A DNA stretch of 64,000 nucleotides, taken from positions 1 to 64,000 of the forward strand of contig CAUYUJ010000234.1 in assembly GCA_963575745.1 (NCBI GenBank). The letters run 5' to 3'. Each line of letters opens with the position of its first letter. Positions within the stretch are counted from its first letter, which is position 1. Positions 11,191 to 14,100 of the stretch are shown piece by piece. Made by a program: the position numbers and the translations under genes. The notes under the pieces were generated by a model. The model saw only the letters and a list, made by a program, of their open reading frames with translations, ran no database searches and was not told where the DNA came from. Source of the DNA: Prorocentrum cordatum. Taxonomy: Eukaryota.

Positions 11191-14100
11191 AAGGGCCAGA
11201 CGTCGGCGAACCAGGACTGGCCTGTAGTGCGGACCACCTCCGCGGGGAGGCGAGCGTCGTCAGCATGGCGCTCGATCCACTGGGGCCCCCGGTCCGCTGG
11301 GATCATGACCGTGCGCCAAGTGTCGTCCGCCTTGACGTGGACTTGGGTCGGTGCCCAGAGCCTGGTAGTGGTATCGCCATGGTCGTGGTGGAGGATGACC
11401 CAGCCGTCGCGACCCGCAACCGCAGGGTCGATAACGCGGTGGCCCATGACGGTCGTCCCCCACGGTAAGTAGGCGCCGTCGTGGTGATCACCAGGGTCAA
11501 GCCAGCCCTCGATGCCAGGGGCATTGACACGGGCCCGCACATCACGGACGTGGTAGGCGAGGACGTGGTAGGCAGTCGGCTCCTCTTCCGTCTCGATGTG
11601 CTCCCACGTCTCGATGTCGCTGTTGTCCGAGGTGGAGTTTCCGCCGCTCTGCCGTGACGAACGCGAGGCGGATCGCCGTGGGCGGGCATGGCCTCGGGCG
11701 AGGGCGGCGGCCGCGCTGATGAGGGACGGCGTACGACGGTCGTCGGCTCCCGATGTCGTCGATGAGCGGTCTGGACTGTGTCCCAGGGCGGCACCTGCCT
11801 GATAGGTGTGCGATGGGCCAGACGCGGCCCCAGGGCTGGAGCCGCTGGGGCGCGGCGCCCGTGCGTCGGACTGCCCCCGCACGGGGACGGCCTGCAAGCC
11901 AGTGTACACCAGGTCGATCAGTGGCTGCGGGTCCAGCTGGAGCTTGCGAAGCGAGGCGCGCGGACGGGGCTGGTTGGGGTCGGCCCTGGTGGCTGCTTCG
12001 GTGTCGTAGTGCTGTGTAGCCCATACTCGCGCTGCCTCTGGCGAGTATAGTGCCTGCGGCGGTGGCCACGCTGCCGCGATGTCCAGCCGGCGCCAGGTGT
12101 TAGCTTCCTGGTCGCGGGCTTCAGCCGCCTCGCGGAGGTCTGGGTGATCGTAGCCGGCGATGTGGAGGGCGTGCGCGCAGTCGCCCATGCCATAGGCTTG
12201 TGGTAGGGCACGGCACCTGGAGGCAGCTTCAGTGGGGGCACACCAGTCCATGCGGATGAGGAGGCCCAGGACCCGTGGGTAGATGAGGCGCGCTCCGTGA
12301 GCCTCCCCTTTCACGACGTTGTGCCAGTTCTCACCGCGCGGCGGTTTGGTAGCCTCGCACATCCAGAGCGCGATGGGTCCCCACGCGAGGGTGTCGTCTT
12401 CGAGGCTGCAGGGCGGGTGAGGCGGCGCTGCGTACCACGCGGCCAGCGACGGGTGCACACTCACGTACGTGCGGCCAACATTTGTGGCGGTTCGACCCTT
12501 CGCTTCACGGCGGGGGCCCGGCAGGAGGTGACCTCCGTTGAAAGCGAGACGAGCCGCAAGGTCACCGCGGGTCCCGTGCCAGAAGACCGTGGGCGTGTCA
12601 GTGGTGGGTTGACGGAGGTCCCACGTGAGGTAGGGGAAGATCGTCTCGCCTGAGTTCCCACCCGAGTCTTCCAGCACCCAAGTGAGTCGGTTCGGGGGCC
12701 TCTGCATGATGTCAGTCCACGGCGCCAACGCTTGGAGCGTTGGGTCATGGGTGAATCGCGGATGGTCGTAGAGTCGCAGGGCGTCTTTGATGTCCTCAGT
12801 AGTCACGCCACTGTTACCAAGCGCAAAGCCGTTCTGGTACAGGGAGGTGAGGATGCTCGTCGGCGGCACGGGAACCGCTGGGTCGCGCTGGATGGTGCTG
12901 CGCAAGTTGCGCGTCGGTGGCCTGAGGGCTGGGTGGGGCGTACCAGGGCCTGGAGGCGCCTGGGGCCTGGCGGGTGATGCGTAGCGTGCTCGCCGTCGTG
13001 GTGGTTGGGTGTCCATGTCGGAAGAGGAACCACGAGCATCTGCATGTCGGAAGATGGACCACGGGCTGTCGAGGGTGCGCTCACGTGTTTCCCTTGCCTC
13101 GGCGCCGCCGGCCTGAGCTGTGGCGTCTTCGTGAGTCGGCGGGTTACCATAAGCCGCGCCGCTTATGGGGCCGTCTCGCGGGGACGGGCTGGTCGACCGT
13201 GGTGTGACAGACGAGGCTCGCGATACCGCGGCAGTGACTTCGACAATGGCGGCGGTGGTGGCGGTGGTGACATCGGCGACTGCGGCGGCAACTGCAGCAG
13301 TATAGTGTTCCTGTAGCAGCGGGTGTCGAAGAGAGTGCACGTGCTGGCTCTCGGGTTCGTCGGGATGCGTGCGCGGCATTGTGTGTGTGGCTTCATCGCG
13401 CGGCCTCCTGCTCGGTTGGCAACAGCGGAGGCACCACTGGGCCGCGGGTGAGTCCAGGGCGCGCGCACAGATGCGGGCTCCTACGTGTCCGACGGCTCCT
13501 TGAGCGAGAAGTTTGGCGCCGACCAGGAGAAGACCGCAAACCACTCCGCCTGTGGCAATAGCTCCGAGTTTGCCGCTGGCCCATTTCAGGGCACCCCCAA
13601 GGCCAGGCCCGACTGCGCTGGCTCTGCCCGAGACGATGTCTCTGAGTTTGGCACTGGTCCACTTGAGAATACCCCACAAGGCGGGCGTGGCGTTGTATGC
13701 CGTTGTGCGTCGGGGCGTAGTGGACACGGATGGGCCTGGTGCCGCAGCTTCACGTCGTCGTCGCTGCCGGTAGCTGGGGTCTCGGCTCGGTGTCGGCAAG
13801 TACCCGTCGATCTGGTCCTTGTACGGCATGGCTACCACGATGGCATACGTGGCCACGAAGAGGCAGTTGAGACAGCCGCAGCGTCGGGAGGCCGCTGCGC
13901 TGTGCGGGGCCTCGTAGGAGCCGCTGGCGTCAGGGCTCGCGTCCTCGATGGGGTCGTTGTCGATGCCAGCCTGCCAGTGGTCGACGGCGCTGGAATTGGA
14001 GTCAGTCGCGTTAGCACGGCAGACAAGGGTGCGGGGCGTGGTTCTGCCACCTGAGGTCTGAAGACGTCCAGGTCCAGCCAATGCTGCAGCGGGGCTGAAG

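Follow-up and report, generated by a model that had tools for sequence, protein, structure and literature searches.

A PARP-type ADP-ribosyltransferase fold predicted in the upstream open reading frame of an abundant dinoflagellate LINE

The window analysed here, a stretch of 64,000 nucleotides from the dinoflagellate Prorocentrum cordatum (contig CAUYUJ010000234.1, positions 1 to 64,000), contains on its minus strand a long interspersed nuclear element (LINE) whose upstream open reading frame (ORF), named ORF A, encodes a domain modelled with the fold of PARP-type ADP-ribosyltransferases (ARTs). ORF A lies at 10509..14746 (-), with its stop at 10509-10511, and a further 5' piece at 15003..15258 (-) is in frame once positions 14747-15002 are omitted. 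ORF A is at least ~1500 codons long, with the ART domain in its middle. The frame as read directly from the window, P0001, covers 10509-14852 (-) in 1447 codons free of stops; about 29 stops are expected per 1412 codons at the local base composition and the probability of none is about 2e-13, so this frame did not arise by chance. An earlier sequence-only reading had proposed an H-Y-E ART domain inside a retrotransposon from four peptides and left their strand unstated. All four were found in the single minus-strand frame of P0001, within residues 756-833: VFWHGT at 12570-12587 (-), FNGGHLLPG at 12516-12542 (-), GRTYVSVHPSLAAWYA at 12429-12476 (-) and WMCE at 12354-12365 (-). The predicted PARP-like ART-fold core spans residues 709-871 at 12240..12728 (-), which is the range of the PARP matches of two structural models, and is surrounded by the 261-aa stretch used as query and for the first model (residues 655-915, 12108..12890 (-)); in that model the N-terminal helical part is confident and the C-terminal part is of low confidence.

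Downstream of ORF A, the same LINE copy (copy 1) continues with ORF B at 7075..10632 (-), which holds a start Met, an N-terminal domain, a Pro-rich region and an APE endonuclease (EN; ~7423-8238 (-)). The start Met at 10630-10632 (-) is conserved, being the residue at which the relatives P0022 and P0024 also begin. The reverse transcriptase (RT), zinc-binding and RNase H regions follow at 3507..6217 (-), split over several frames, with Pfam matches all below the cut-off (RVT_1, E 0.031; zf-RVT, E 0.017; RNase_H, E 5.6e-5, 23.8 versus 25.8 bits), and a (TC)n 3' tail closes the copy at 2057..2218 (-). A second copy, 88-90% identical, lies at 21033..29385 (-), 5'-truncated inside ORF B and without the ART region; both copies end in '...cttgtccgatc(tc)n'. 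Copy 2 holds one intact 1986-aa frame in which the IVDD motif is present, and its Exo_endo_phos match reaches 24.6 bits against a Pfam cut-off of 24.5. Judged from its sequence, the element has what an APE-type LINE would be expected to have, namely EN, RT and RNase H in one sense-strand ORF, and its many copies, 5' truncation and defined 3' tail are likewise LINE characters.

The fold of the ORF A domain was modelled twice with AlphaFold. Model 1 covers 261 aa and was built from alignment A1 (the window protein and 17 relatives; pLDDT 74, pTM 0.76), and model 2 is a trimmed version of 172 aa based on 19 sequences after removal of P0015 and P0019 (pLDDT 72). In a Foldseek search of the PDB with model 1, all 40 matches listed were PARP catalytic domains, six of them at E<=0.001, and the best was PARP4 (8swy_A, E 2.5e-5). 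VIA-align comparison of model 1 with 48161 representative chains placed PARP catalytic domains in all of the top 12 positions, including PARP16 (6hxr_A; Z 6.5, root-mean-square deviation 4.1, 116 aligned) and PARP10 (3hkv_A; Z 6.5, root-mean-square deviation 3.6, 123 aligned), and 35 of the 50 listed rows were, judged from their titles, PARPs or pseudo-PARPs, ADP-ribosylating toxins, Arr or Tpt1. With model 2, PARP-type chains filled 16 of the top 17 VIA rows (Z 4.6-5.8) and PARPs made up 37 of the 39 Foldseek matches listed. The structural case for the predicted fold rests on the near-purity of these match lists across two models and two aligners.

Sequence comparisons point in the same direction. 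A language-model search of a protein atlas returned PARP clusters as the named neighbours, with scores of 0.89-0.92. Residues 81-139 of the relative P0006 match positions 47-102 of the Pfam PARP family, which is the His/Tyr part (E 0.0047, 16.9 bits); this was the better of two sub-cut-off matches among 18 family members, the gathering cut-off of PF00644 being 26.7 bits. For profile alignment by hhalign, six PARP domains and twelve Arr proteins were taken from bacterial genomes, and A1 aligned locally with the PARP domains over 98 columns (P 0.003, probability 10.6%) and with Arr over 130 columns (P 1.2e-4, probability 55%). On the models, the motifs are predicted to be part of a ~165-aa domain with a PARP-type ART fold, and the family is a compact, divergent PARP-like ART branch overlooked by sequence profiles. 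The ART assignment made from the peptides is thereby sustained by structure searches with two models; of the profile and structure searches that the earlier reading had called for, the latter put PARPs at the head of the lists and Pfam yielded only sub-cut-off matches in relatives.

The residues expected at an NAD site were examined in a 19-sequence family, each count below including only those sequences with a residue in the column. His759, in WHGT on the first core strand (codon 12576..12578 (-)), is His in 11 and Gln in 2 of 13; Tyr796, on the TYV strand (12465..12467 (-)), is Tyr in 12 of 12; Tyr807, which follows 11 residues later (12432-12434 (-)), is Tyr in 13 and His in 1 of 14; and Glu833 of WMCE (12354..12356 (-)) is Glu in 15 and Ser in 1 of 16. 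Further along, in the stretch His852-Gly-Ala854 (12291..12299 (-)), which would begin the strand that bears the catalytic residue in PARPs, His852 is kept in 12 of 15 and Ala854 in 11 of 15, and position 850 is variable (Glu in 2 of 15). Together with His759, Tyr796 and Tyr807, Gly760 is one of four NAD-site residues each retained in 11-13 of 12-14 sequences. Invariant motifs peculiar to the family include PGPRRE and H-x-A-R-L-I-Y-P-R. By DSSP assignment on model 1, the strand of His759 (model residues 103-108) leads into a helix, the strand that comes next (141-144) carries Tyr796, and Tyr807 belongs to the helix behind that strand; Glu833 ends strand 172-180, and the last two strands are formed by H-G-A-R-L-I-Y-P-R-V-L-G-L-L-I-R-M.

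Alignment by hhalign to the PARP domains paired WHGT with WHGT, TYV with GIY and WY with GY, so that the His and both Tyr are matched to PARP residues; since they are also conserved in the family, the His and both Tyr of a NAD site are supported. The Glu of WMCE faces the one in 'FLAEAALG', the strand that succeeds the Tyr helix, and the alignment ends short of the catalytic 'SEYLVY'. In the alignment to Arr, the same Glu is paired with the Glu of 'VVEP' and the Arr Asp pair falls on the loop 'RGEN'. The aligned ranges of the structural matches end at residue 1010/1011 in PARP1, 1008 in PARP10, 274 in PARP16 and 1314 in tankyrase 1, and with the triad residue numbers of these four proteins, the chain ranges would place the catalytic position at about residues 850-854 (E-A-H-G-A). 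Glu833 is conserved but probably not the catalytic Glu, and the third triad position looks non-acidic in the model-based placement, as in mono-ADP-ribosylating PARPs. Of the proposed H-Y-E triad, the His and the Tyr stood, being conserved and PARP-paired, and the "E" is not shown, because the WMCE Glu is matched to the strand behind the Tyr helix and not to that of the catalytic Glu. Two findings that the sequence-only reading had named as counting against itself, absence of a predicted ART fold and loss of the motif residues among copies, did not occur: PARP domains top the Foldseek and VIA lists, and His759, Tyr796, Tyr807 and Glu833 are mostly kept.

Relatives of the domain are mostly short. 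An exhaustive HMMER search of 1.84 billion representative proteins gave 18 matches at E<=0.001, all of them short fragments except P0019, a 1574-aa repeat protein that was dropped as spurious; two more, P0020 (420 aa, 93% identical) and P0021, came from a word-based search. The GTDB genome scan had a sole match, L001, a 1423-nt contig from another sample that is 93% identical over 474 codons with no gap and no stop. Comparison of the window with L001 over 257 codons of the ART domain counted 53 synonymous and 20 non-synonymous differences (dS 0.345, dN 0.035, dN/dS 0.10), and 5' of the ART domain dN/dS was 0.235. This ratio shows that the ART domain is under strong purifying selection. L001 belongs to G001, a bacterial metagenome-assembled genome in GTDB, in which the ART piece and EN/RT pieces of the same LINE are on separate short contigs and PF00644 was not found. 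The short contigs L001-L006 of G001 are 90-96% identical to the dinoflagellate LINE, and they are most likely eukaryotic contamination of the G001 bin. Two contig scans of Joint Genome Institute metagenomes, with the ORF B junction protein and with ART alignment A2, found none, and neither did an IMG/VR scan. Metatranscriptome X20 holds 14 contigs of the element, three across the ART domain; since RNA libraries can hold DNA, and a silent control was lacking, transcription is not claimed from it. Runs X3 and X5-X19 had shares of 0.17-0.45, from which no habitat or host range is read.

Whether the ART frame belongs to the LINE was asked from the 5' boundary of copy 2. The match between copies 1 and 2 stops at 10475/29385, and copy 2 lacks the ART region; therefore the ART frame could have been foreign to the LINE. 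In fact, relatives in the ORF B frame cross 10475 at 68% (P0022), 60% and 45% (P0024) identity, and P0022 and P0024 begin at a shared Met aligned to 10630-10632, 52 residues 5' of the boundary. Because the ORF B relatives cross 10475 and start 52 residues upstream of it, copy 2 is a copy 5'-truncated inside ORF B. Furthermore, the start of ORF B is inside the tail of ORF A, with an overlap of 124 nt on the same strand. ORF A has the same GC content (0.66-0.68) and the same GC skew (about +0.15) as the LINE, and beyond 15235 the two values become 0.50 and -0.03.

Contigs of three DNA runs from differently labelled organisms (X1, X2 and X4) were placed on the element at a likeness of at least 85%. 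X1 supplied 35554 contigs over 8.4 kb, with a summed depth of 6109-11914 over 7000-10371, 11496 in the 10372-10652 bin that holds 10475, 7941-10113 over 10653-12900 and 3660-8610 over 12901-15400. In all three runs the depth is unbroken from the endonuclease to the ART domain and drops about two-fold toward the 5' end, as 5' truncation predicts. No loose end was near 10475 among the 18 loose ends listed for X1, X2 and X4. Contigs of the three runs join ~14746-14749 directly to 15003-15009, and the A-rich tract of 256 nt at 14747..15002 (-), skipped in other copies by joints that omit 256-269 nt, is for this reason private to the window copy. Loose ends at 15234/15235 recur in all three runs, which indicates that the family extends further 5' and that the window copy is cut at 15235. 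At a G6 run (10758..10763 (-)), other copies carry one extra base that would fuse frames A and B; the depth of the extra-base variant (behind 10757) was 847.5/11431.2 in X1, 2991.1/6617.9 in X2 and 34.7/34.7 in X4. Such a base could be ancestral or mark a slippage site; it could also belong to a dead variant, or reflect subfamilies that differ in the length of the homopolymer. The claim that the domain is LINE-encoded thus gains support from the ORF A/B overlap, the unbroken depth, the shared composition and the truncation of copy 2, and the evidence supports assigning the ART domain to a very abundant dinoflagellate LINE of >13 kb, as part of its upstream ORF. On ART-LINE linkage, which the earlier reading had proposed to survey in dinoflagellate genomes, the runs of three organisms gave like depth, and no bridging contig was obtained.

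Among known proteins, the best structural matches of both models are PARP catalytic domains (PF00644), with the mono-ADP-ribosylating PARP10, PARP16 and PARP15 as the closest kind. The likeness to mono-PARPs includes the order of elements: the first core strand bears the His and leads into a helix, the strand that follows bears a Tyr, and a helix bears another Tyr at a distance of 11 residues; the Tyr-to-Tyr spacing in PARP1 is also 11. PARP10 and PARP16 lack a Glu at the third triad position, as the window protein seems to, and mono-ADP-ribosylating PARPs such as these and others are active without the triad Glu. The window protein differs from PARPs in having no PF00644 match, in its own invariant family motifs and in being encoded by a retrotransposon; between the strand after the Tyr helix and the last two strands it has ~19 residues, whereas PARP1 has ~60. 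The compact layout is similar to that of Arr (PF12120), a minimal ART; in the hhalign alignment to it, HGT, Tyr and the final 'DW' each face an identical counterpart and 'WMCEA' faces 'VVEPT', and VIA gave Z 4.0 over 101 aligned residues at 19% identity. In contrast, the loop opposite the Arr Asp pair is unconserved here, PARPs rank higher structurally, and the Pfam families listed at E<=10 for the 18 members do not include PF12120.

The closest parallel in element organization is SymbioLINE-Dnmt, a LINE of Symbiodiniaceae whose EN-RT-RNase H ORF is preceded by an ORF with a DNA methyltransferase (DNMT), described in the main text of de Mendoza et al. 2018 (PMC5890265) as having no poly-A tail, a high copy number and an extra domain under purifying selection. 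The two elements are alike, as far as that text goes, in a captured enzyme domain in the upstream ORF, absence of a poly-A tail, high copy number and purifying selection, and they differ in the domain, which is here an ART fold and not a DNMT; no Pfam family, DNMT included, was found in ORF A at E<=0.1. The same main text has zero occurrences of PARP or ADP-ribos. Full-text literature searches found no LINE or retrotransposon described with a PARP or ART domain, in agreement with the earlier remark that none was known; the papers listed by one of these searches all concerned host PARPs or ZAP. One part of a fungal PARP survey mentions a CHROMO domain fused to integrase and RT in one Fusarium species; this was set aside as not being a LINE. 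The element type and the habit of domain capture are known, and the ART cargo is new. For human L1, a passage of a review (PMC8535693) states that host PARP1/PARP2 and RPA are needed at the integration nick and that ADP-ribosylation helps retrotransposition. The ADP-ribosylating enzymes of human LINE-1 are host-encoded, unlike the domain described here, and a role of the dinoflagellate domain at integration is drawn by analogy.

Joining these lines, the best explanation, and a probable one, is that ORF A of the LINE carries a PARP-type ART domain that would act as a NAD+-using mono-ART. The protein would bind NAD+ and, produced together with the LINE's own machinery, would transfer single ADP-ribose units, during target-primed reverse transcription, to a protein or the end of a nucleic acid in the integration site or its vicinity. 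By analogy, the element may supply for itself the help that human L1 takes from host PARP1/PARP2. That the domain is catalytic is predicted with hesitation, at slightly less than an even chance; a pseudo-PARP binding role is less likely, and the remainder falls to some other function or none. It is rather unlikely that an active ART of the LINE works in cis on the end of a nicked nucleic acid or on a host protein of repair or defence. If such an activity existed, retrotransposition could be independent of, or resistant to, host PARP-based control, and the element would be the first eukaryotic retrotransposon known with a NAD+-using modifying enzyme. In the usual view, a LINE encodes an RNA-binding protein and EN/RT and nothing more, and an ART-fold domain under strong selection in an abundant LINE is a new class of cargo. 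An element-borne ART would offer a handle on the role of ADP-ribosylation in target-primed reverse transcription; alternatively, it could show interference of a mobile element with NAD+-based control by the host.

Several results weigh against this explanation, and they divide among three alternatives. A dead pseudo-PARP, serving as a binding or scaffold module in the manner of TASOR, PARP13/ZAP or plant RCD1/SRO1, is the least improbable of them and still doubtful. It would account for the lack of a conserved acidic residue at the inferred catalytic position 850-854, a position taken from aligned ranges, and for the Gln that replaces His759 in 2 of 13 relatives; moreover, the VIA scores of TASOR (Z 5.3), PARP13 (Z 6.4), RCD1 (Z 5.3) and SRO1 (Z 5.1) with model 1 are close to those of active PARPs. 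PARP13 and PARP9, however, have lost the residues that are kept here, namely His759, Gly760, Tyr796 and Tyr807, and active mono-ARTs likewise lack the Glu; purifying selection is compatible with either reading. A chance resemblance, in which a small mixed alpha/beta domain of another fold or function imitates an ART, would explain why every Z is below 8 ("middling" by the scale of the tool), why TM-scores in the model 1 Foldseek search are only ~0.3, and why sequence statistics are weak: Pfam found zero families for the window protein, the PDB sequence search gave two chance rows for it (E ~0.8) and none for the family profile, the hhalign probabilities of 10.6% and 55% are low, and global hhalign to the PARP set failed. 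Foldseek with model 2 likewise gave nothing at E<=0.001 (best 2.0e-2), so that trimming brought no gain. Such a resemblance is nonetheless very improbable, since two models, two aligners and the language-model search all rank PARP/ART first with little else listed, and the His, Tyr and Tyr are on the same secondary-structure elements at the Tyr spacing of PARP1.

The third alternative concerns the element and not the fold, and would make the ART frame a separate repeat or multi-copy gene merely adjoining a LINE copy. It is in keeping with the absence of the ART region from copy 2 and with the outside data, in which no contig joins ART to EN/RT, all homologue contigs being <=~1.5 kb; G001 provides no bridge because its ART and EN/RT pieces are on different short contigs. 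A search for long proteins found none of 795-2533 aa with the domain, 839 further loose-end rows stand beyond the 18 listed, and inspection of copy 1 by eye showed no target-site duplication at either end, its 5' end being cut at 15235 beside another repeat. Against a separate repeat or gene, the start of ORF B is upstream of the copy 2 boundary and inside the ORF A tail, the depth is continuous and alike in three organisms and falls only toward the 5' end, neither composition nor skew changes from one part to the other, and one extra base fuses both frames in some copies. We regard a mere adjoining as improbable, and encoding of the predicted ART domain by the LINE itself is the reading retained.

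Other parts of ORF A were also noted. A Cys-rich, zinc-finger-like stretch (C-x2-C ... C-x2-C ... C-x2-C in translation) is at 11016..11117 (-), and a beta-rich stretch lies 3' of the ART domain at 11200-11580 (residues ~1090-1200); Pfam gave no family match for either. The protein atlas search returned a weak SH3-like lead for residues 1085-1290 (best score 0.85). In the N-terminal half of ORF A, two hydrophobic stretches at 13491-13550 and 13827-13874 resemble membrane spans, which would be odd in a LINE protein.

The ends of the LINE copies adjoin simple repeats. The boundary of copy 2 at 29385 abuts (CT)n and poly-T, with (CT)n at its 5' end over 29385-29560, and (TC)n 3' tails are at 2057-2218 and 20870-21150; this could mean that (TC)n microsatellites, or the tails left by previous copies, serve the LINE as insertion sites. 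Low-complexity A-rich or T-rich tracts occur within or at the edges of the GC-rich LINE copies. One of them, a T-rich tract of ~100 nt in the RNase H region of copy 1 (3674-3776), is absent from the other copy or from contigs of other genomes, and a further one is at 29560-29635.

Elsewhere in the window, the dinoflagellate spliced-leader motif (21 bases) occurs exactly at 61622-61642 (+), where 0 were expected from 100 shuffles, and a spliced-leader relic with 3 mismatches is at 37500-37520 (+); the exact motif is in keeping with DNA of dinoflagellate origin. A 900-aa open frame at 34217-36919 (+) contains a P-loop-like 'GAPGVGKT', for which Pfam gave only an unconvincing T2SSK match (E 0.016). 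Tandem and inverted repeat arrays are located at 31335-32125, 33288-34178 and 60439-61056; the first translates to WFHGF-like repeats, and the last is built of a 152-nt unit at 97% identity.

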